A DNA stretch of 64,000 nucleotides from an uncultured bacterium (GTDB taxonomy: Bacteria; Patescibacteriota; Minisyncoccia; Minisyncoccales; Minisyncoccaceae). Positions 20,843-39,972 of the stretch are shown piece by piece; position 1 is the first letter of the stretch, and every line of letters begins with the position of its first letter. Made by a program: the position numbers and the translations under genes. The stretch is taken from contig CAWECB010000002.1 of assembly GCA_963807465.1 (NCBI GenBank), forward strand, positions 18,167 through 82,166. Reading direction: 5' to 3'. The notes below the pieces were generated by a model. The model was not told the DNA's origin. It did not search any database and saw nothing but the letters and a program-made list of their open reading frames with translations.

Positions 20843-21143
20843 ATGACCATAGCCAAAACTGATTCGCAAAGATTTTTCGTGATTTCAGAACCCTGCATCA
20901 ATATTCCTAGTTTGCTTTTATATCTTCCAGATAGTAAAATTAACCGAGGCGAATTACTTAATCGGACAGAAGGAAAGCGAGGTGAAACAATTAAAGAAAG
21001 ATACCGCCCAATTGGAGCTTTCGGTGTCGGAAGAAAGGAACTTGAGTAACTTTGAGGCAAAGGTTTCGGAGGATGGATACCAGAAGATCAATAATGTCAA
21101 CTATATCGTAGTTTCTGAAGCGTCTCTAGCCTCGGCAAAATAA
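20843..21143 (+). pseudogene. FtsL-like cell division protein, at least one frame change
   Basis: TM segment ASIFLVCFYIFQIV followed by coiled-coil KLTEANYLIGQKESEVKQLKKDTAQLELSVSEE. It lies between rsmH and ftsI, and its stop overlaps the ftsI ATG. Confidence 0.5.
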
Positions 21144-22872
21144 TGGCCATGGTCAATAATACAAGACTGAATATCGTCATAATAGTCGTCTTTTTGATGG
21201 GGGGGATAGTTTTATCCCGCTTATTTTATTTACAGATAAAAGAAGGTAATTATTACAAAGCGATGGCGGAAGGACAGCAGAACTCAATCTCCGAAGTCGA
21301 GGGCGCAAGAGGACAGGTCTATTTCAAAAACGGGGAATTACTGGCGAGGACGAAGACGAGCCATATCTTTTCATTTCACCGGAGGAAATCACGGACAAAG
21401 ACAAGACAGCTTATGATATTTCGCAAACCGTGGGAATCGACAAGGATACAATCCTTAATCTTATGGCCAAAGCGGGAAGTTATTACGAAGTAATCAAGTA
21501 TAATTTGAGCAAAGACGAAACGGATAAAATTAACAATCTCGATTTCAAGGGTGCTTACATCGGATATAAGACTAAGAGGTATTACCCCCAGGACGAGACG
21601 CCTGCCAACTGATCGGATTCATCAATGAAGATGGAGTGGGCCAGTACGGAATCGAAGGATATTATAACGACATATTGAAAGGAAAGACGGCCCTCCAGAA
21701 GCAGGAAAAGAACCCCTGGGGATTCTTATTCTCCTTAACGACGAACGATTCGATGGACGGAGCGTCGCTTGCCACGACCATCGATTACAATATCCAGTTT
21801 GAAGCCGAAAAAGCTGTTACAGGATGGAGTGGAAAAATACGGGGCGGAAGGGGGGCAAATCATCGTCATGGACCCGTCGACCGGAGAGATTATCGCCATG
21901 GCTCAATATCCCAATTTCGACCCGAATAACTATCAGATCGAAAGATGGAAGATTTCCAGAACTCCGCCGTAGAAAAGTTATTTGAACCCGGCTCTATATT
22001 CAAGCCAATAACCATGTCCGCGGCCATAAACGAAAACACAGTCGCTCCCGATACGGTATTCGACGATAAGCTCGGCTATGCCCAATTCGGCACTTATAAG
22101 GTGTATAATTACACTGATAAGGATTGGGGTAAGGTGACTATGACCCAGGTATTACAAGAATTCTATCAATACCGGCGTAATGTTCGCCGAAAGAACGATG
22201 GGAGACGACAAATTCTATAATTATCTGGATAAATTCGGATTCTTCGAAGATACCGGGGTGGATCTTTCGGGAGAAGTATATTCCGAAAACAACGAAATAA
22301 AAAAAGCATACAATAATCGCAATTCCGAAGTGACTTTCGGCACCACCGCTTTCGGACAGGGAATAGCGATGACACCTCTCCAAATGGTAAGGTCTTTTTC
22401 GGCAATCATCAACGGAGGAAAACTTATGAAGCCCTATATAGTTAAGGAAATAGATAAAGGAGGAACAAAGCAGGAGATACAGCCACAGGTCATAAGGGAC
22501 AACATTATTTCCGCCGAAACGAGTTTAAAATTGAAAAACATGATGATCAACGTAGTCGAATCCGGATTCGGCAACCTGGCCAAGATCCCCGGCTACTATA
22601 TTGGCGGAAAAACCGGAACAGCCCAAGTTCCTTATACCTCTCTCGGAATAAACAAGTCGGGATATTCAGACCACACCTGGCAAACATTCATGGGTTTCGC
22701 TCCGGCCCTCGATCCCAAGTTCATAGCTTTAGTTAAACTCGACAACCCGACCAAGACGAAAACATCCGAATATTCAGCCGTGCCCATCTTCCACGATTTG
22801 GCTAAATATATTTTCGACTACTGGCAGATTCCGCCCGATTATGACGCTTCGCAACCTTTGGACAAAAAGTAG
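21143..22872 (+). pseudogene. ftsI: penicillin-binding protein 2 / FtsI transpeptidase, about 5 frame changes in the first 1050 nt, 3-prime 690 nt intact
   Basis: N-terminal TM segment, YYPQDETPAN/LIGFINEDGVGQYGIEGYY, IIVMDPSTGEIIAMAQYPNFDPN, SxxK (PGSIFKP), SxN (NSINTG), KTG (GGKTGTAQ). Confidence 0.85.
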
Positions 22873-27674: not shown

Positions 27675-29143
27675 TTATGTAGGTTGTACTTTTTTAATAA
27701 TAGTTTTCTCTCCGGAGTCTTCAACGGTCCACCCCGTCTTTTCTATCTCTTTTCTTACTTCATCCGCCTTATCCCATTCTTTCTTTTTTCTTAATCCTTC
27801 TCTTTTTTGAATAAATTTCATAATTACTTTAGGAACGATGCTTGTGTCGCTTGTCCAGACGGGAATACCGTCTTTTTCTGTTTTAATGAAATATTTTGAA
27901 TCACTTACGTCTTTCGATTTGACTGAAGAAAGGCTTAATCCGAAAACCTTGTCGAAATCAATCAATAAATCGTATTTTTCCCGTCGGATAGTTCTTTGTC
28001 TTTCAACACGTCCCAAGCTATAGCCAAGGCGGAAGGAATATTTAAATCGTCATCGATGAAATCAATGAACTTATTTTCGTATTCGTTCAAATTTCTTTGA
28101 ATGTTTTTTTCTTTTGCCCTATTAGCCAATTCGGAAACCTTTTCGTAAAGCCTGTTCAAGCTGTTCTCCGGCGAATTCGACGCTTTCATCGCTGAAATAA
28201 GTTTTGAACGATAATGAGTTCCCAAACACAGATAACGGTAGGCGAGGGGAGCAACTGCCTTTTTCGGTTAAGCTCGACAAGGTGGCGATATTACCCAAGG
28301 ACTTACTCATTTTACCTTCCTTAACGATCAGGAATTCCCCGTGGAGCCAATAATTGCACATGTGTTTGCCGTATGCGGCTTCGGCTTGAGCAATCTCATT
28401 CGTATGGTGAATGAATATATGGTCGATTCCTCCGCAGTGGATATCAAAAGGAATCCCTAAATTATTCACACTCATGACTACGCACTCGGTGTGCCAGCCG
28501 GGAAAACCTACTCCCCAGGGAGAATCCCACTCCATCTGCCTTTTTTCGCTCTTAGGGCTGAATTTCCAGAGAGCGAAAGTCACATCTGTGTCTTTTTTCC
28601 TTGATCTCCTTCTATCCTTGCTTTGGTTTCTTTTCTTTCACTCTGTCCCCATAATCTTCCGTATTTCTCTAATTTCGACGTGTCGAAATACACTCCGTCG
28701 TCTAAGAATATAGGTGAATCCTTTATCCTCCAGTTTCTTGATTAGTTCTATCTGGTCCTTAATCGTATCCGTTGCCTTAATCCAGACATTCGGTTCGACA
28801 ATATTCAATGATTTTAATATCCTTCTTGAAAAAGTCCGTATAGAACTTGGCGATTTCCCAGACGGTCTTTCTTTCTTTCTTCGCTTCTTTTTCCAGTTTG
28901 TCTTCTCCAGTGTCGGAATCGGAAGTCAAATGCCCGACATCGGTGATGTTCATCACGTGCTTAACCTTATATCCGTTATACATTAAAACCCTCTTTAAAA
29001 GGTCTTCAAAGAGATAAGTCCGCATATTGCCGATGTGGGCGAACCAATAGACGGTCGGTCCGCAGGTGTACATGTCCGACTTCCTTGCCTTTAATTGATT
29101 TGAATTCTTCTTTTTTCTTGGTTAAGGTGTTGTATAGTTTCAT
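27675..29143 (-). pseudogene. cysS: cysteine--tRNA ligase, multiple frame changes
   Basis: [68 protein letters not shown] and the C-terminal KKEWDKADEVRKEIEKTGWTVED are spread over at least 5 ORF fragments. Confidence 0.85.
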
Positions 29144-31073: not shown

Positions 31074-32174
31074 ATGTCAAACTTAGTATTATACCGCAAA
31101 TACCGACCGCAGAATTTCAAAGAGTTCTTCGGGCAGGAACACGTGGTCAAGACGATAATGAATGAAATATCTTCCGGCATGATTTCCCATGCCTATTTGT
31201 TTTCCGGGCACAGGGGAACGGGAAAAACAACTTTGGCCAGATTGTTCGCCAAGGCAATCAACTGCCAAAATTTGAAAGGTGCGGAGCCGTGCAACAAATG
31301 CCCCTCCTGCTTGGAGATAAACAACGGAAGGGCGGTTGATATTATCGAGATTGATGCAGCTTCAAACAGGGGAATCGATGAGATAAGGAGTATCAGGGAA
31401 GGAATAAAATTCACTCCGACTTTTCTCAAATACAAAGTCCTGATTTTAGACGAAGCCCACCAATTATCCAAAGATGCGGCCAACGCTCTTTTAAAGATAC
31501 TGGAGGAACCACCTTCATATGCAGTTTTTATTTTAGCAACGACCGAAGCGCACAAAATGATTCCGACAATCGCGTCCCGCTGCCAAAGGTTCGATTTCTA
31601 TAAATTGACCTTCGACCAGATGGTTGAAAAGCTGATCTTTCATTTGCAAAAAAGAGGGGATTGATATCGAAAAAGAAGCTTTGGGCTTGATTGCTTCCGG
31701 CTTCGGAAGGTTCGATGAGGGACGCCGAAGGAACACTAAACCAGGTTTTGAATTTCCTGCCCGATACGGAAGATAAAGGCGGAGGACGTTCAAATGCTTC
31801 TGGGACTGGTTGATATACACTTGGTGGTTGAGCTGGCCAATTATTTGATCAAAAAAGACAAAGCCGGAGCTTTGAAGTTTTTAAACGAAAACATTGAAAA
31901 GGGAATGGACATTCCCGAATTCACTGGAACTTTCATTGACTATTTGAGAAAATTGCTTATCCTTAAGATTGATTCCGGCTTGATCGGTTCGGTAATGCCC
32001 GGAGAGACCAAGGAGGTGGAAGGAAACGGCCCAAAAACAGGCGGGGGAATTCAGCGAAGAAAATCTGAAAAAGCCCTCAATCTTCTTCTGGATGCGGACA
32101 ACAAGAGTAAATACGCTTCAATACAGCAACTGCCTCTCGAGCTGGCCATGATTGAATCGATTGGAATCGAATAA
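31074..32174 (+). pseudogene. dnaX: DNA polymerase III subunit gamma/tau, about 3 frame changes in the 3-prime half
   Basis: YRPQNFKEFFGQEHV, GHRGTGKTTLARLFAK, Zn module CNKCPSCLEINNG, ILDEAHQLS and ATTEAHKMIPTIASRCQRF. The later parts (GSMRDAEGTLNQV, LLGLVDIHLVVELANY) lie in other frames. Confidence 0.85.
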
Positions 32175-32178
32175 CTAT

Positions 32179-32252
32179 TGCGGGATCGTCTAAAGGTAGG
32201 ACAGTGGCCTTTGAAGCCATTAATCTTGGTTCGAGTCCAAGTCCCGCAGCCA
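32179..32252 (+). tRNA. tRNA-Gln (anticodon TTG), CCA encoded
   Basis: Acceptor TGCGGGA/TCCCGCA (U1:A72 as in bacterial tRNA-Gln), anticodon loop CTTTGAA, T-arm CTTGGTTCGAGTCCAAG, discriminator G plus CCA. Confidence 0.9.
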
Positions 32253-32311
32253 CAGTCAGCGCGTTATCGAGGCCGACCAGAGTGCCTCAATTAGCAGATT
32301 AATCACAGAAC

Positions 32312-32345
32312 ACAAAACCACCAAATGTCTGGTGGTTTTGTGTTT
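32312..32345 (+). terminator. intrinsic terminator downstream of tRNA-Gln
   Basis: 12-bp stem ACAAAACCACCA / TGGTGGTTTTGT with loop AATGTC, followed by GTTT. Confidence 0.6.
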
Positions 32346-32397
32346 ACAGAGCGTCTTAATTGTGATAAATTAAAGTTATACGAGTAAGGTTTTATAT

Positions 32398-32622
32398 ATG
32401 GAAAACAAATCACAAAAATCACAAAAATCCCAAATTGGCGTGACTATACGTAAACTCAGAAACAAACTCGGGCTCTCCCAGGATGCACTATCCAAAAGAG
32501 CCGATTTGGCATTTCATACAATTGCGAAAATTGAATCTGGGTCGACCCCCGATCCCCGAATTGATACGGTTAAAAAAATAGCGAACGCGCTTGGCGTTAC
32601 GCTTGATGATTTAATCAAATAA
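32398..32622 (+). CDS. XRE-family helix-turn-helix regulator (controller-like, first gene of operon)
   Basis: 74 aa. IRKLRNKLGLSQDALSKRADLAFHTIAKIESGSTPDPRIDTVKKIANALGVTLDDL is a classic HTH_3 fold. The stop is 2 nt before the MTase ATG. Confidence 0.85.
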   Translation: MENKSQKSQKSQIGVTIRKLRNKLGLSQDALSKRADLAFHTIAKIESGSTPDPRIDTVKKIANALGVTLDDLIK

Positions 32623-32624
32623 AT

Positions 32625-33716
32625 ATGGCAACAAAATCTTTAAATACGGGTCTCAAGAAAGCGGGCGTAGCAAAAAAAGACGAATTTTATACGCAACTTG
32701 TCGATATTGAGAAAGAGATAAAACACTACAAAGATCAGTTCCGCGGTAAAGTTGTTTACTGCAACTGTGACGATCCGTTTGAGAGCAATTTCTTCAAATA
32801 TTTTGCCGCCAACTTTAAAGCACTTGGATTGAAGAAACTTATCACAACGAGCTATGTGAAATCGCCGATTGCTGGAAAACAAATACCGTTGTTTGAGATG
32901 GAGGGACTTAAGCCAGACGGCAAAGAGCCGTACGTGGTGGAGATAAATGAAGTACCGGATATTAACAACGACGGCGCGATAAGTTTGGAAGATGTCGAGG
33001 CACTACTTAGACGTAATAAAAAATCATCTCGGAAATTACAGGGTAACGGCGATTTCCGAAGTGAAGAATGTATTGAATTACTCAAAGAAGCTGACGTTGT
33101 GGTCACGAATCCTCCATTTTCACTCTTTCGTGAATATATTGCCCAGCTTGTCGAATACAATAAGAAGTTTCTGATTATCGGTAATGTAAATGCGATTACT
33201 TACAAGGAATCTTTTAAGCTTATAAAAGATAATAAAATGTGGCTCGGTGCCAGTATTCATAGTGGCGACCGTGAGTTTCGTGTGCCTGACCACTACCCAC
33301 TTGAGGCCGCAGGGTTTCGTGTAGACGAAAAAGGTAATAAATACATTCGCGTCAAAGGGGTGCGCTGGTTTACCAATCTCGATTATGAAGAACGCCACGA
33401 AAATTTAATATTATATAGGAAATATTCATCTAATGAATATCCAAAATACGACAACTATGATGCGATTGAAGTCTCCAAAACCGCAGATATTCCCATGAAT
33501 TATAGAGACGCTATGGGTGTGCCGATTACGTTTCTTGATAAATATAATCCCGAACAGTTTGAGATATTGGGTCTAGCAAATGACAAGAGGGAAATAGATA
33601 AAGCGTTCATACAAGGCAACGAATTTAATTTAGATGAGCAACACAAAAGATTTGTGGGTATGGTATTAAATAAAAAGGCTACTTATGCACGTATTTTAAT
33701 TAAACAAAAAAAGTAA
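32625..33716 (+). CDS. N6-adenine DNA methyltransferase, EcoRI-methylase-like family
   Basis: N-terminus KKDEFYTQLVDIEKEIKHYKDQFRGKVVYCNCDDPFESNFFKYF and catalytic VVTNPPFSLFREY (NPPF motif). Confidence 0.8.
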   Translation: MATKSLNTGLKKAGVAKKDEFYTQLVDIEKEIKHYKDQFRGKVVYCNCDDPFESNFFKYFAANFKALGLKKLITTSYVKSPIAGKQIPLFEMEGLKPDGKEPYVVEINEVPDINNDGAISLEDVEALLRRNKKSSRKLQGNGDFRSEECIELLKEADVVVTNPPFSLFREYIAQLVEYNKKFLIIGNVNAITYKESFKLIKDNKMWLGASIHSGDREFRVPDHYPLEAAGFRVDEKGNKYIRVKGVRWFTNLDYEERHENLILYRKYSSNEYPKYDNYDAIEVSKTADIPMNYRDAMGVPITFLDKYNPEQFEILGLANDKREIDKAFIQGNEFNLDEQHKRFVGMVLNKKATYARILIKQKK

Positions 33717-33717
33717 T

Positions 33718-34809
33718 ATGAAAATCGATCTACAAAAAATTAAAATCCGAAAAGTCGTTACTGGCTACAAAGACAGTGCTGAAGAAGGTGTGGTGGCCTA
33801 TGGTGGTAAGCTGGATATTCGGCCAAAATATCAGCGTGAATTTGTGTACAAGGAAAAACAGCGCGATGCAGTGATAGAAACTGTTAAAAAGGGTTTTCCG
33901 TTGAATGTGATGTATTGGATGATTAGAGATGATGGTGGCTACGAAGTGCTGGATGGACAACAGCGCACTATTAGCATTGGGCAATATGTTACTGGTGATT
34001 TTTCCATGAATAATCGCTTTTTCCATAATTTAACCAAAGAGGAGCAGGATAAAATTTTGGATTATGAACTGATGATTTATCTTTGTGAAGGCACCGATAA
34101 AGAGCGAATCGATTGGTTTACGGTCATAAATACATACGGAGAAAAGGTGAACGAGCAAGAAATTCGCAATGCGGTATATACCGGCCCGTGGCTTTCTGAT
34201 GCAAAACTCAAATTCAGCAAATCGAACTGCGCGGCATATCTCTTGGCGAATGATGGTGGACAGTTGGTCAGTGGCTCGCCAATCAGACAGGAGTATTTAG
34301 AGACAGCGCTTTCGTGGATTAACGACGGCAAGATCGAGGACTATATGGCCAAGCACCAGCATGATAAAGATGCTAACGAGCTGTGGGAATATTTCCAAAA
34401 AGTTATTGAATGGGCAAGAAAAACTTTTCCCAATTATCGCCGCGAGATGAGCGGTGTATCGTGGGGCGAGCTGTATAACGAGTTCAAAGGCAAAAAATTC
34501 GATTCAAAGAAATTGGAAAAGGAAATAACCGAGTTGATGCAAGACGAAGATGTAACTAAAAAATCAGGCATCTACGAATATGTTTTGAATGGCAGTGAAA
34601 GGGCGTTGAACATTCGTGCCTTTACGGACAAACAAAAGAGAGAGGCGTATGAAAGTCAAAAAGGCATTTGCGCAAAATGTAAAAAGCATTTTGAGATAGA
34701 AGAAATGGAAGCAGATCATATCAAACCTTGGCATGAGGGCGGAAAAACAATTGCTACAAATTGTAAGATGTTATGTAAACAGGATAACAGGACTAAATCC
34801 GGGAAATAA
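33718..34809 (+). CDS. DUF262 (ParB/GmrS-like) domain protein with C-terminal HNH endonuclease
   Basis: IRPKYQREFVY and LDGQQRTISIGQY are DUF262 signatures. The C-terminus CAKCKKHFEIEEMEADHIKPWHEGGKTIATNCKMLCKQDNRTK is an HNH motif. The start is 1 nt after the MTase stop. Confidence 0.85.
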   Translation: MKIDLQKIKIRKVVTGYKDSAEEGVVAYGGKLDIRPKYQREFVYKEKQRDAVIETVKKGFPLNVMYWMIRDDGGYEVLDGQQRTISIGQYVTGDFSMNNRFFHNLTKEEQDKILDYELMIYLCEGTDKERIDWFTVINTYGEKVNEQEIRNAVYTGPWLSDAKLKFSKSNCAAYLLANDGGQLVSGSPIRQEYLETALSWINDGKIEDYMAKHQHDKDANELWEYFQKVIEWARKTFPNYRREMSGVSWGELYNEFKGKKFDSKKLEKEITELMQDEDVTKKSGIYEYVLNGSERALNIRAFTDKQKREAYESQKGICAKCKKHFEIEEMEADHIKPWHEGGKTIATNCKMLCKQDNRTKSGK

Positions 34810-34830: not shown

Positions 34831-37392
34831 ATGGAAGATAGTAGAACACCATTCGTAAAAGAAGTTGCAAAGACCATCACCGAACGTCACGGGAACGAGA
34901 GCGGGTCTTTTATCTTTGGCATATCTGGTAAATGGGGTGAAGGCAAAACTCGTTTTTTAGATGAATTAAAGGAAATTTTAGAAAAAGACAATTCACCGTT
35001 CAAAGTTGTTGATATAAATCCATGGAAATTCTCTGTCGATAGAATCTCTTTTTTAAGAAATTTTCTACGCACCTTATACGGAAAGTGCGGTTCGGAGAAC
35101 GAGAATGATTTAAAACAGTTGGATGTCGACACATCAGAAAATGCAATCGATTGGGGGCGTTTTGCAAAATTCGTTGTATTACTTGCGATTATTTGTTTGG
35201 CTTTTACTTATACCCCTCTTTTTAATTTCGTTGTCAGTCTCCCTGCGCAATGGCAATTTTTTCTTACCGTTCTATTTCTTCCAATAGTTTTAGCTGCTAT
35301 TCAAAGTGTGGTTACGGTTCAAAAGACGGATCACGCTATCGTAACTCTAGATAAATTCGACGATCTACTTGGGGAAATACTAATAAAATTTAAGGCAGCA
35401 GAGAAAAAAATTATTGTCTTTGTGGATGATCTTGATCGCGTAACTCCAGAAATGGCAAGAGATGTTTTAGATAATCTCCGTACATTCTTTGATAAAAAGG
35501 AAATTACGTTTGTTGTGACGGGCGATCATACAGTACTCGAAGGCCATCTCGGAAGAAGTTTATTGCCTGACGAAGAATCTTCCGCCGCTCAACTCGAGGA
35601 AGGGCGAAGATTTATGAAAAAAATTTTTAACGTATACTGGCGCCTACCGCTACCAATCAAGAAGGAACTTCAAGATTTTATTAAAGGTGAGTTCCAAAAG
35701 AAGGAGGCGGGGCTGAAAGAAGTATTTTCAGAAGAAAACCAGAAAACTACTTTTGCTATATATTTGGAGAAATATTTTGAAAGCAACTTTAGGCAAATAA
35801 TTCGATTTTTGGACACAGTTCTCTTCAACTTCCAAATCATAAAACAAAAAGCTGAGAGTGAAGATGCGCAACAAGCGCCATACTTTAAAGATATGTTAGC
35901 CAATCCGTTGCTTGTGGTGCGGATCCTTATGATTCAAGAGTTATGCGCCCCTCTTTTTGATAAAATGGTCAGAGATGTTTCTATCTTGCAGGGGCTTGAA
36001 TACGCAGTTGAGAAAAAGGATTCTTCCAAAATAAGTGGAATTTTCGAACAAAGCAAAGATGTTCTTTCTCCTAGTCAACGAGCTTTCATGGAAAAGTTTA
36101 TTTATGAAGAACCCCATTTTTATAAAGCTTCTCAGTTACAGGTTTTAAATCTCCAGCCGTATCTTTCATTAGCCGCTGATGTGAGTTTTGGCGATCAAAG
36201 AGGTCCATCAAGTGAGGATTTTATGGCAACACTAAATGGAGGTGATCCAAAGGCTGTCAAAAACGATCTCCTTTCTATGGGTGACGTCAAGGCACAGGAT
36301 GGAGCAAATGCCTTAGCGACCGCATTACCTTCAATAACTGATATAACGCAAAAGCAATCCGCGCTTAAGACACTCCTTACTGCTTTATCTGATTCACCTG
36401 CAGAGTTAACGATACATAAAATTTTTGCTAAGAAGTTAGCTGAACTCGATTACAGTTTTGTAAATGATGCTGCCTCTAATCTGAAAATGGATATTCTCAA
36501 CCCCTTTTTCCATTGGCTTGATCTTATCGCCGACATTGAAACAACGAAATTATTTAAGGATAAATTCACCCTAAGAGACCCTGCTGAGTTCAACGCCACG
36601 ATCAGTGAAAATGCAGGCTCTTTTAAAAGCTTAGTATTAGCGAAGTGGTTAAAAGATTACTACCCAACAAATAAACCCGAGGCTATAGCTTTGATGATCC
36701 AGCATTTTCCGAAACTAAAAATCGAGCAGGTATGCGAGCAGATGGATCTTGTTAGCGACTCTCTTATCGCAGACATCATCGGAGACGCGAATGCTCAGCT
36801 AAGAGAAAATCGGTCGGAGTTGCTGAAAGGCTATACGACAAAGGGTGTGGCAGATCTAAAGAAAAACATACTTGATCAAGTTTCCAATCTTGATCAAGGA
36901 ATTACTGCTTGGGCTATCACGAAAGCAAATGAAGAAAAACCTTTTTGGTCCAGAACTGAAATCGAATTACGAGTTCTTGTAAAGATTGATGAATCTACGG
37001 ATTTTAACACTCTTAGTCAGGGGTTACGATTTGCAATTGCCAATAACATCGGCACCCCGGAAACTATTTGGCCGAAGCTGATGCCCAAGCATAAAGACTT
37101 ACTCATTGAAAACCTGCCAACCATCGTCGATGACGCATCTTTTCAAGCCATTGCGCCTCTCCAAGCTTATGCGAATCAGCTTATGGACGCAGTTGTGGAT
37201 AAAGTTAAGGCAGTTCCGGAAACCGATCAAGCTCGTTGGCTTGGCTATATCGTAAAAGGTAAGTGGCTTTGGGTTAACCTCACCAAATATCCTATTGCAA
37301 GTAAGTTTAGGAGTTTGAAGAAGTCAAAAGATGATGGTATCAAGCAGGCGTTAAGTAGTGCCGAAGAAAGTTGGAAAGAAAAAGTATCTTAG
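34831..37392 (+). CDS. KAP-family P-loop NTPase with two transmembrane helices inserted in the NTPase domain
   Basis: Walker A GISGKWGEGKTRF, TM pair FVVLLAIICLAFTYTPLF / FFLTVLFLPIVLAAIQSVV, Walker B KKIIVFVDDLDRV, then about 600 aa of uncharacterised C-terminal sequence. Confidence 0.85.
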   Translation: MEDSRTPFVKEVAKTITERHGNESGSFIFGISGKWGEGKTRFLDELKEILEKDNSPFKVVDINPWKFSVDRISFLRNFLRTLYGKCGSENENDLKQLDVDTSENAIDWGRFAKFVVLLAIICLAFTYTPLFNFVVSLPAQWQFFLTVLFLPIVLAAIQSVVTVQKTDHAIVTLDKFDDLLGEILIKFKAAEKKIIVFVDDLDRVTPEMARDVLDNLRTFFDKKEITFVVTGDHTVLEGHLGRSLLPDEESSAAQLEEGRRFMKKIFNVYWRLPLPIKKELQDFIKGEFQKKEAGLKEVFSEENQKTTFAIYLEKYFESNFRQIIRFLDTVLFNFQIIKQKAESEDAQQAPYFKDMLANPLLVVRILMIQELCAPLFDKMVRDVSILQGLEYAVEKKDSSKISGIFEQSKDVLSPSQRAFMEKFIYEEPHFYKASQLQVLNLQPYLSLAADVSFGDQRGPSSEDFMATLNGGDPKAVKNDLLSMGDVKAQDGANALATALPSITDITQKQSALKTLLTALSDSPAELTIHKIFAKKLAELDYSFVNDAASNLKMDILNPFFHWLDLIADIETTKLFKDKFTLRDPAEFNATISENAGSFKSLVLAKWLKDYYPTNKPEAIALMIQHFPKLKIEQVCEQMDLVSDSLIADIIGDANAQLRENRSELLKGYTTKGVADLKKNILDQVSNLDQGITAWAITKANEEKPFWSRTEIELRVLVKIDESTDFNTLSQGLRFAIANNIGTPETIWPKLMPKHKDLLIENLPTIVDDASFQAIAPLQAYANQLMDAVVDKVKAVPETDQARWLGYIVKGKWLWVNLTKYPIASKFRSLKKSKDDGIKQALSSAEESWKEKVS

Positions 37393-37402
37393 TTTAAATT
37401 GA

Positions 37403-38740
37403 TTAATTTTGAACTGACAACTTTTTATCTCTTAAAATTAATTTATTCTTGACGCATCCGAGTAGTTCTCGTTTCTCCTCCATTGTTCCTCCGTTCAGCA
37501 CGTGAGTCGCGTACCGCTTTGCGTCAAAGTCTTTCTCAAGAGCACCCTTATCGTGAATATTAAGGAACGCTTTTTGAAATTTGGCCATTCGCTTGTATTC
37601 TTCATCGAACTTCTTTTTTATAATTCCCTCATTCATCTCTAAATTTCCGATGACTGCCACTAGTTGTTTAATGACTTCCTCTTCTCTGATATAACCTTCT
37701 TTACACTGTAGGTTTCTCGATCGGTTACAGCCATAATAGACATAATGAGCCATATCGCCGCTGGCAAGTTTTTTGTATTTATCTTCTGCCGTCACTCCTG
37801 ATCCACAGCGTCCACAAGTCATCATCCGCGAAAATGCGAATTGTTTGTCGATAAATTTTATCTCTGAACGCTTGAGTTGCTCTCGAGCCTTTTCAAAAAC
37901 TTCTCTCGTAATGAGCGGCGTATGTTGTCCTTTGTACCAATTTCCGCTACCCATCGGATATTCAAATGTTCCGTAAAAGAAAGGTGTTTGCAGTAAGCGA
38001 TAAATATTACTCAACGTCAGCGGTTTATTACTCGTCGCACTTCGGAAGTTCATTTCGAATTTCAGCCAATGATATATTTTTCTGCCACTCCAGCCTTCAA
38101 AAGCCACCTTCTCAAACATCTGTTTCATTACAGGGCCACGTTCAGGATCAACCATTACATATCCTTTTCTGTCGATTCGTTTTTCATTTAAATATCCTGT
38201 TGGAGCCGGAGCTGGCCACAGCCCCATCTCACAACGCATTCGGAGTCCTCTTTTTACATTCACACTTTTGTTGTCATTTTCCAATTTCGCCTGACTACAG
38301 AGAATCATCAGTAGAAATTTTTCGTTTGGATTATTCGTGAATTTTTGCCCGAATGTTTTAATCTCATATAAAAGTTTCTGATCCATGAGATCGACTAGCG
38401 AACCCAAGTCTCCGGCATTTCTCGAAAGACGATCGGGTGCCCAAGTTAGGATTCCTGTATATCGTCCACTTCGGATGTCAGCGAGAATTTCAGTAAAGAC
38501 CGGACGCTGTCCCGAATCTTTTGCCGAATGCGACTCTCTCCGGATATCGACGATCTCTAGTCCGTCACGCTCGGCAAGTTGAAGCATCTCTTTAATTTGG
38601 CTCTCAATAGAGAGGACTTGGCGTTCTTCGCTCTCGGTTGATTTACGCGCGTAAAGGCAATATTTGACCTTTACCGGAGGCTCAATTGGCTTTGGGGTCT
38701 GAGCCTCCACCGACCCTATTGGTGGTTGTTGATTTCTCAT
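37403..38740 (-). CDS. large serine recombinase (resolvase/invertase N-domain + recombinase domain + zinc ribbon)
   Basis: YCLYARKSTESEERQVLSIESQ is the catalytic Ser region. Also present are LTWAPDRLSRN, CGRCGSGVT...YVYYGC and a coiled-coil tail. ATG 38740 is preferred over TTG 38761. The gene is convergent, with its stop 10 nt from the KAP gene stop. Confidence 0.85.
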   Translation of the reverse strand: MRNQQPPIGSVEAQTPKPIEPPVKVKYCLYARKSTESEERQVLSIESQIKEMLQLAERDGLEIVDIRRESHSAKDSGQRPVFTEILADIRSGRYTGILTWAPDRLSRNAGDLGSLVDLMDQKLLYEIKTFGQKFTNNPNEKFLLMILCSQAKLENDNKSVNVKRGLRMRCEMGLWPAPAPTGYLNEKRIDRKGYVMVDPERGPVMKQMFEKVAFEGWSGRKIYHWLKFEMNFRSATSNKPLTLSNIYRLLQTPFFYGTFEYPMGSGNWYKGQHTPLITREVFEKAREQLKRSEIKFIDKQFAFSRMMTCGRCGSGVTAEDKYKKLASGDMAHYVYYGCNRSRNLQCKEGYIREEEVIKQLVAVIGNLEMNEGIIKKKFDEEYKRMAKFQKAFLNIHDKGALEKDFDAKRYATHVLNGGTMEEKRELLGCVKNKLILRDKKLSVQN

Positions 38741-38930
38741 ACAACTCAAGTAATGCCGCAACCCTCTTGGGTAGTCCAGGCCAGAAAAGGAGGTAAACTG
38801 TTGGTAACTTTTTATCGCTGAAAACCCAACAATCCATTGTCAGGGCTTAAAAATTTTGATATCATTGAAAATGACAACTGAATAATAGAGACGGCCTAAA
38901 CCAGATATTTTATTTGGCATGGCCAAAAGA

Positions 38931-38975
38931 CCCAATGACGATACTGAACCCCGCGTTCAGCAACTCGTCATTGGG
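38931..38975. repeat. 45-bp nested imperfect palindrome (candidate recombinase or regulator site)
   Basis: CCCAATGACGA..TCGTCATTGGG outer arms (11 bp) and CTGAAC-cccgc-GTTCAG inner arms. No U-run follows, so it is not a typical terminator. Confidence 0.5.
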
Positions 38976-39066
38976 CTATATACCGAAAGGTGTATAGGGC
39001 CGTAAGGCCTAGCTAGCGCGGGGCTTAGTGTTTATATACAAGTCCTCGCGCCATCTACCTAAAATT

Positions 39067-39972
39067 ATGGCGCTATTTTTTACCCAAAACGGAACAACAA
39101 AAAAGATACCGACCGTCAAAGTCGGTCTGGAAAAGGATGTGCAGAAACTTTTCGAGAAAAACCTCGATGAGATTTTAAATATCCATTTTTTGGCAACTGA
39201 ATACTCGACTAGTTCTGGCGGTAGGATTGATAGTCTTGGCATCGACAACAATGGTTCACCCGTAATCATTGAGTACAAACTGTCTCAAAATGACAACGTT
39301 ATTAACCAAGGACTGTCCTACCTCCGTTGGCTCCTAGACCATAAAGACGCCTTCGAGACACTGGTGCGTAAAGCGAGTGTTGATATTGAAATCGACTGGG
39401 CATCGCCCAGGGTTATTTGTGTTGCGGAGAGCTATAACAAATTCGATCTGGATACCGCCGATCTTTTACCAATGGATATCGAACTTTTGCGCTACAGACT
39501 TTATGAAAATGACATCTTGCTGGTAGAACCAGAAGTTCAGCGCAAAGTGAAAATTTCAACCTCTGAAATTTTCTCAAAAATTGAAAAGCACGAATTCAAA
39601 GAAAAAATCCATTACACCGTTGATGACCATTTAAAATCAGCCAGCGATGTTGTTCGTGAACTGTTCGCTCTCATCAAAGAAAAAATATCAGCTCTCGATG
39701 AATCAATTATTGAGGAACCAAAGGCAAAATACATTGCATATAAATTAACTACCAATTTTTGCGATGTAGTGGTACTAAAAGATTCCCTCAAAATTTTTCT
39801 GAATGTTTCAAGTGGTGAGCTAGAAGATCCATCGGGCATGGCACGCGATCTTACAAAACCGAAACCAATCGGACACTGGGGTAACGGCGACTATGAGGTA
39901 AAACTCGAAAAACAGGAGGATATAGACAAGATTATGGATTTAATAAGACAAAGCTATAACTACAACAAATAA
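39067..39972 (+). CDS. PD-(D/E)xK nuclease-like (NucS/DUF91-type) protein with DUF5655-like C-terminal domain
   Basis: GGRIDSLGIDNNGSPVIIEYKLSQ..VINQGLSYLRWL matches the D..ExK core of NucS-like endonucleases. ATG 39067 is the likely start. Confidence 0.6.
   Translation: MALFFTQNGTTKKIPTVKVGLEKDVQKLFEKNLDEILNIHFLATEYSTSSGGRIDSLGIDNNGSPVIIEYKLSQNDNVINQGLSYLRWLLDHKDAFETLVRKASVDIEIDWASPRVICVAESYNKFDLDTADLLPMDIELLRYRLYENDILLVEPEVQRKVKISTSEIFSKIEKHEFKEKIHYTVDDHLKSASDVVRELFALIKEKISALDESIIEEPKAKYIAYKLTTNFCDVVVLKDSLKIFLNVSSGELEDPSGMARDLTKPKPIGHWGNGDYEVKLEKQEDIDKIMDLIRQSYNYNK

Follow-up and report, generated by a model that had tools for sequence, protein, structure and literature searches.

A DUF262-HNH nuclease and an EcoRI-family methylase from an uncultured Patescibacteriota bacterium probably form a conventional restriction-modification operon

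The characterised DUF262 nucleases GmrSD and BrxU attack modified DNA, as described in published papers, and a nuclease with the same domain encoded directly behind a DNA adenine methylase raises the question of whether it is aimed at modified DNA as well or serves as the restriction partner of that methylase. Such a pair is present in an uncultured member of Minisyncoccaceae (656 kb, 44% GC, three contigs; assembly GCA_963807465.1), in a stretch of 64,000 nucleotides of contig CAWECB010000002.1 that is referred to here as the window. The genes at 32398-34809 probably constitute a conventional, host-controlled restriction-modification (R-M) operon with the order controller, methylase, restriction enzyme (C-M-R), inserted beside a tRNA-Gln gene in a variable defence region. 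The operon comprises the following features:

32356..32373, forward strand: candidate operator, a C-box-like palindrome (TTAATT-N6-AATTAA) proposed from a reading of the sequence
32398..32622, forward strand: HTH_3 (XRE/Cro-type) protein of 74 amino acids in the controller (C) position (PF01381, E 1.5e-15)
32625..33716, forward strand: EcoRI-family N6-adenine DNA methyltransferase of 363 amino acids with an NPPF motif (Pfam, PADLOC)
33718..34809, forward strand: DUF262-HNH nuclease of 363 amino acids with an ATG start, the restriction enzyme of the pair (open reading frame list, Pfam, PADLOC)

The nuclease is composed of a DUF262 domain at residues 34-154 (PF03235 GmrSD_N/DUF262, E 1.3e-16, 61.7 bits against a Pfam cut-off of 33.2), a helical middle region, and a zinc-finger HNH domain at residues 318-361 (PF01844, E 1.4e-10). 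The N-terminal domain is ParB/Srx-like and carries the QR and DGQQR motifs, found in the sequence as YQR at residues 38-40 and DGQQR at residues 79-83, and the C-terminal domain carries a CxxC motif (318/321), a DH pair (333-334), N348 and N357. In an alignment of 45 sequences, which fall into two clades that are 39% identical to each other, the residues P36, Q39, R40, D79-G80-Q81-Q82-R83, C318, C321, D333-H334, N348, C353 and N357 are invariant, and QR and DGQQR line up with their counterparts in BrxU (PDB 7p9k). According to published papers on DUF262 nucleases, DGQQR constitutes the nucleotide pocket in DUF262 NTPases, and cutting falls to the HNH-like domain.

Comparison with defence-system profiles places the protein with type II enzymes. 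The PADLOC model REase_II (PDLC03418) matches it at E 4e-142 over positions 1-372 of 372, other PADLOC nuclease models match only in part, through DUF262 or HNH (NsnA, PD-T4-2_A, PtuB), and no PADLOC model named GmrSD, BrxU or SspE matches it at E<=0.01. The nuclease shares its domain order with GmrSD, BrxU and SspE, a DUF262 domain containing QR and DGQQR at the N-terminus followed by a His-Me finger nuclease at the C-terminus; unlike them, it possesses the zinc-finger HNH domain PF01844 and lacks their defining DUF1524 (PF07510), which was not detected in the C-terminal region at E<=0.01, where Pfam gives PF01844 and PF14279 only. The protein is also 363 amino acids long versus 587 for BrxU. 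These comparisons bear on a possible identity of the nuclease as a modification-dependent (type IV) enzyme directed against some other modification, with the methylase having a separate role or shielding self DNA by N6-methyladenine. The DUF262 domain is as expected of such an enzyme, given its presence in GmrSD and BrxU, whereas the lack of DUF1524, of a GmrSD, BrxU or SspE match, and of a length near that of BrxU is not. Neither the nuclease nor the methylase has a specific model in NCBIfam; both are real genes, and several thousand homologues exist.

The methylase matches PF13651 (EcoRI_methylase) over profile positions 2-345 of 345 (E 3.6e-151) and PADLOC MTase_II (PDLC03297) end to end (E 2.1e-128). 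We take the two PADLOC R-M models, PDLC03418 and PDLC03297, to derive from REBASE enzyme sets. Like the methylase of the EcoRI system, of which it is a true homologue, the protein belongs to PF13651, and it exhibits 48% full-length identity to the methylase (M.EcoRI) encoded beside a 'type-2 restriction enzyme EcoRI' on the Escherichia coli plasmid pU90-3. M.EcoRI produces N6-methyladenine in GAATTC. Unlike in the EcoRI system, the window nuclease, with its DUF262 and HNH domains, is unrelated to R.EcoRI, a PD-(D/E)XK enzyme, and the methylase gene precedes the nuclease gene, whereas the order on pU90-3 is R then M. The same methylase family therefore serves two unrelated nucleases in opposite gene orders.

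The methylase gene ends with TAA at 33714-33716, which is followed by a single base (T, 33717) and the nuclease ATG at 33718, so that the junction reads AAAAAG TAA T ATG AAA; there is no Shine-Dalgarno sequence before the nuclease ATG. The initial annotation had placed a 363-residue DUF262-HNH protein 1 nt after the methylase stop, and the open reading frame list, the sequence and Pfam confirm this arrangement. Given that the methylase comes first, that the junction is 1 nt, and that the nuclease lacks a Shine-Dalgarno sequence, synthesis of the nuclease would depend on translation of the methylase.

To place the pair among its relatives, one genome per species (185,579 species) was scanned with a handful of peptide patterns, which recovered about 440 relatives; the analysis proceeded with the best 80 loci. 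The nucleases of these best 80 loci are 79-89% identical at the protein level, and their hosts are Patescibacteria, Omnitrophota, Elusimicrobiota, Poribacteria, Planctomycetota, Atribacterota, Gammaproteobacteria, Flavobacteriaceae and an archaeal metagenome-assembled genome (MAG), among others. In 77 of the best 80 loci the nuclease gene is directly preceded, on the same strand, by that of an EcoRI-family methylase, and this linkage to an N6-adenine methylase distinguishes nucleases of the window type from the stand-alone GmrSD and BrxU. Two of the three loci with no upstream methylase have less than 500 nt of upstream DNA, and the third (L046) has 983 nt with a DnaJ-like protein and a contig end. 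The two genes are separated by exactly 1 nt in 43 of the 77 linked loci, and in 58 they either overlap or lie no more than 5 nt apart. The domain assignment and the tight methylase-to-nuclease coupling given in the initial annotation are correct.

At the other 17 loci, unrelated 'rider' genes of 0.3-1.9 kb lie between methylase and nuclease, with the exception of one methylase frameshift and one insert that contains no open reading frame. The riders (L004, L006, L008, L009, L010, L015, L022, L025, L026, L033, L051, L060, L069, L073 and L077) include an AAA_21/AAA_15 ATPase, T5orf172, RhuM, Bro-N, and membrane proteins that have no Pfam match. The junction is a recurrent insertion point, and the same types of rider return in different loci.

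The association extends to more distant and more mobile relatives. Relatives only 39% identical, on Rhodococcus ruber pYYL1.1 and on an Apilactobacillus kunkeei plasmid, have methylase then nuclease with a 4-nt overlap. Among 72,556 plasmid records there are 43 full-length nuclease matches, and the methylase is upstream on the same strand wherever its position is given, counting wraps round circular records. Cultured carriers include Macrococcoides canis (plasmid NZ_CP046364), Lactiplantibacillus pentosus (NZ_CP016495), Enterococcus faecium, on megaplasmids, and Variovorax. In a library clustered at 50% identity, 504 nuclease clusters were found at E<=1e-30, nearly all of 360-410 amino acids and aligned over their full length, and more than 8000 protein clusters of the family exist at 90% identity. 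A single 688-residue protein from the 50%-identity library, P0264, fuses PF13651, PF03235 and PF01844; this one case could be a natural type IIC-like fusion or the product of an assembly indel at a 1-nt junction.

On the question of whether homologues are linked to this methylase family at all, where the initial annotation had allowed for the answer never, the result is the opposite: linkage in 77 of the best 80 loci, on plasmids, and in one phage shows that this nuclease family is as a rule so paired. To call the pairing unexpected and type IV-like, as had been done, is consequently an overstatement, given also the match to a PADLOC type II restriction enzyme and the lack of DUF1524. A type IV nuclease needs no cognate methylase, yet the linkage is nearly constant, the 1-nt junction is conserved, and even a fusion protein occurs. 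A modification-dependent enzyme is for these reasons very unlikely, and the related proposal that the methylase shields self DNA from a nuclease aimed at another modification is poorly supported by the same linkage and fusion. Of the three readings first proposed, the one favoured by the linkage and by the PADLOC assignment is the conventional restriction partner, a nuclease that would cut unmethylated DNA.

Carriage by mobile DNA bears on the third of those readings, a phage-derived anti-defence module, together with its variant, a purely selfish addiction module with no defensive role for the host. The pair is mobile on plasmids and islands and is once inserted in a phage genome, and R-M pairs in general can act as addiction modules. 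Full-length nuclease matches, however, number only 4 in 50,697 phage records, versus the 43 in plasmid records and the about 440 in species-representative genomes, and the one phage copy inspected, in Flavobacterium phage laban6-1, is the same methylase-nuclease pair present as a small insert. The window pair, moreover, sits among genes of defence type (a KAP/PifA-like NTPase and a PDC-S18 match, described below). Little thus speaks for an origin as a phage anti-defence module, and an anti-defence or purely selfish role is highly improbable; addiction and defence are not mutually exclusive.

A few loci run counter to the preferred C-M-R operon. Chryseobacterium taklimakanense plasmid NZ_CP034172 (L097, 1829-3586) encodes an intact 361-residue DUF262-HNH protein preceded by a methylase reduced to a 162-residue fragment, and at L019 the nuclease is intact and the methylase frameshifted; L046, at its contig end, is possibly a further case of an intact nuclease with a missing methylase. 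Intact nucleases beside damaged methylases are unexpected if the nuclease is lethal, and they are what the type IV reading would allow. NZ_CP034172 and L019 may reflect sequencing or assembly errors, or the site may be covered by another methylase, and NZ_CP034172 is a possible example of a nuclease tolerated with no partner methylase. Were such loci common, there would be less reason to regard the nuclease as lethal in the absence of its partner. The activity of the characterised DUF262 nucleases on modified DNA also counts against the C-M-R operon, as does the lack of any sign of site avoidance in palindrome counts of the host genome.

The architecture of the cassette is that of the type II C-M-R operons in PADLOC-DB: as in them, methylase and nuclease are encoded by separate genes that lie close together in one orientation behind a small HTH gene, and the cassette is mobile and patchily spread. 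The HTH gene stops 2 nt before the methylase ATG, and a homologue is present in the same position at 14 of the best 80 of about 440 relatives. The candidate operator overlaps a promoter-like match, TTTACA-17-TAAATT, at 32343-32371, although such sites are not above shuffle expectation, and HTH-bearing related loci have other palindromes (ACTAT-N-ATAGT) where the window has its candidate operator. In the proposed mechanism, the EcoRI-family methylase would place N6-methyladenine on a short site, probably one akin to the AATT-core sites of the family, and so mark self DNA. Judging from gene linkage alone, the DUF262-HNH protein would cut DNA that is unmethylated at that site by means of the HNH active site (D333-H334, N348, N357 and the zinc-binding cysteines). 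The HTH protein would be the controller and would probably delay and limit expression once the cassette enters a new cell.

Sequence evolution was compared across the 68 loci in which both genes are complete. Pairs of nucleases are on average 83% identical and pairs of methylases 65%, a contrast that is inflated since the sample was picked by nuclease similarity; the nuclease is the more conserved gene in 98.8% of pairs, and the identities of the two genes correlate only weakly (r = 0.19). Over a longer range, both genes are 37-60% identical to the window copies. Synonymous sites are saturated in both genes (median dS above 2, with many pairs undefined), and dN/dS, which is to be read with this saturation, is about 0.04 for the nuclease and about 0.09 for the methylase, so that both are under purifying selection. 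The methylase varies mainly at residues 81-140, 201-260 and 321-360, whereas conservation of the nuclease is uniform, and the whole nuclease is under unusually strong constraint. Given the saturation at synonymous sites, the 80-89% identity of nucleases from different phyla reflects old divergence under strong constraint, and a recent sweep as its cause is ruled out. A nuclease that evolves more slowly than its methylase is the reverse of the usual pattern for restriction enzymes.

The window cassette differs from type II C-M-R operons in that its nuclease has a ParB-like NTP-binding domain; to our knowledge, this domain is known from no well-studied type II enzyme. An AlphaFold2 model of the nuclease, built with 45 sequences, is of moderate quality (pLDDT 68.9, pTM 0.48). 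Its N-terminal part resembles ParB and Noc CTPase structures (E about 2e-3), with BrxU at rank 20, and its C-terminal part resembles the Gme HNH nicking endonuclease and the HNH domains of Cas9; with a pLDDT of only 68.9, these matches back the domain folds and nothing finer, and the aim of a high-confidence structure was dropped. Since the ParB-like N-terminal domain keeps its nucleotide-binding motifs, NTP binding may gate or stimulate cleavage.

This leads to the main alternative, in which restriction is still host-dependent but in which the DUF262 domain is an NTPase switch that licenses the HNH domain, in the style of SspE and BrxU. The trigger would perhaps be the methylation state of the site, or clamping and sliding like that of ParB-CTP. 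Such an enzyme would depend on NTPs and might cleave at a distance from its site, a departure from classical type II behaviour. According to a review, SspE is a DUF262 nuclease that carries out restriction for a host modification system, and NTPs stimulate BrxU. Like SspE, the window nuclease partners a host DNA-modification module, and SspE is thereby a precedent for a DUF262 nuclease beside a modification gene. The invariance of QR and DGQQR across clades and their alignment with BrxU, the resemblance of the modelled N-terminal domain to ParB, Noc and BrxU, and the strong constraint on the whole nuclease (dN/dS about 0.04) are in keeping with such a switch. The structural matches are weak, however (E > 1e-3, from the model of pLDDT 68.9 and pTM 0.48), the nuclease domain is PF01844 and not DUF1524, and PADLOC files the family with type II enzymes, and the switch is on this evidence rather unlikely.

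In its fullest form, the switch would make the cassette a member of a large R-M class in which a ParB-like NTP switch (QR/DGQQR) gates a zinc-finger HNH domain by the N6-methyladenine state of the DNA. Such a class would be a methylase-partnered cousin of SspE and BrxU, with an operon that looks type II and a mechanism that is NTP-dependent, perhaps involving loading at unmethylated sites with clamping or sliding by analogy with ParB-CTP. We advance it only tentatively and consider both the m6A-gated switch and the kinship with SspE and BrxU doubtful.

The surroundings of the C-M-R operon, which begins 145 nt past tRNA-Gln, contain the following features:

32179..32252, forward strand: tRNA-Gln (UUG), the left flank of the insertion, given for context (ARAGORN, Rfam)
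32309-32344: terminator hairpin after tRNA-Gln, a 15-nt perfect inverted repeat
34831..37392, forward strand: KAP-family P-loop NTPase of 853 amino acids (PF07693, E 5.1e-34; PADLOC PifA and QatA-like matches)
37403-38761, reverse strand: large serine recombinase (Resolvase, Recombinase and zinc ribbon domains), converging on the KAP gene
38893-39010, forward strand: LOOT RNA, a full-length match upstream of the recombinase start (Rfam RF03000, 88 bits against a gathering score of 46.4)
39028-39972, forward strand: PDC-S18/DUF5655 protein of 314 amino acids (PADLOC candidate defence family PDC-S18, E 6.5e-98)

The KAP NTPase gene starts 21 nt past the nuclease stop and encodes hydrophobic segments. 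No homologue of it is present beside the methylase-nuclease pair in the 80 related loci, and it may be a separate defence gene of the abortive-infection type. The serine recombinase has a paralogue on contig C3 of the same genome, and the PDC-S18/DUF5655 protein exhibits a weak NucS-like match at its N-terminus. With the R-M pair, the KAP gene and the PDC-S18 protein, the region looks like a defence island. A single composite system uniting the KAP NTPase, the recombinase and PDC-S18 with the methylase-nuclease pair was rejected, none being co-conserved with the pair in the 80 loci.

The closest relative of the host (G008) is 84% identical in DNA across dnaX and tRNA-Gln and has a recombinase homologue directly after tRNA-Gln, with no C-M-R-KAP block between; synteny returns only at about 56.8-62.9 kb of the window. 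The nuclease is present in 6 of 61 related genomes. The absence of the block from the tRNA-Gln site of the closest relative, together with carriage in 6 of 61 genomes, indicates that the cassette was inserted into a variable region, which measures about 24 kb. This patchy spread and empty site fit a mobile R-M module, and the cassette is one of the features by which 32.3-57 kb, next to tRNA-Gln, can be recognised as a variable defence region. A tRNA-derived att repeat was considered and rejected: the 25 nt at the 3' end of tRNA-Gln have no second copy in the window, and no convincing direct repeats flank the cassette.

Palindrome counts were examined for the recognition site. In the 656-kb host genome, GAATTC has an observed/expected ratio of 1.19 and is not avoided, AATT is ordinary at 0.89, and the counts give no sign of site avoidance. 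In the pooled related loci (816 kb), GAATTC (0.77) and CAATTG (0.78) rank only 10th and 13th of 64, and palindrome avoidance was dropped as uninformative for the site. An identity of the family with the AATT cutters Sse9I, MluCI and Tsp509I was likewise set aside as a guess that finds no support in the surveys of Orlowski & Bujnicki and Pingoud et al.: the former list Sse9I ahead of the section on HNH enzymes, in which no subfamily among the 14 clearly corresponds to the DUF262-HNH family, and the latter group MluCI with EcoRI and MunI. The literature searched yielded no study of a PF13651 methylase with a DUF262-HNH enzyme as its partner, no recognition site, cleavage pattern or mechanism for this family, and no member that had been tested biochemically or genetically.

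The window feature is an intact copy of a very common, mobile two-gene R-M cassette that is already catalogued as type II, and as one more such copy it is of little significance in itself. The family, however, with about 440 carriers among 185,579 species-representative genomes, ranks among the most widespread R-M pairs of uncultured bacteria with small genomes. Its interest rests on the biochemistry of the family as a whole and not on the window copy: the nuclease joins a ParB-type nucleotide pocket to an HNH domain, so cleavage may be NTP-gated, which, if true, would be unusual for a methylase-paired enzyme.

Several housekeeping genes of the window appear fragmented. The dnaX gene (31074-32174, forward strand) is split into two open reading frames of 196 and 126 amino acids, with an out-of-frame stretch at about 31650-31790, whereas dnaX of the closest relative is intact at 365 amino acids. 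A penicillin-binding protein (PBP) gene (21143-22872) and cysS (about 28122-28583) also look fragmented. This suggests assembly indel errors or gene decay; the R-M genes are intact.
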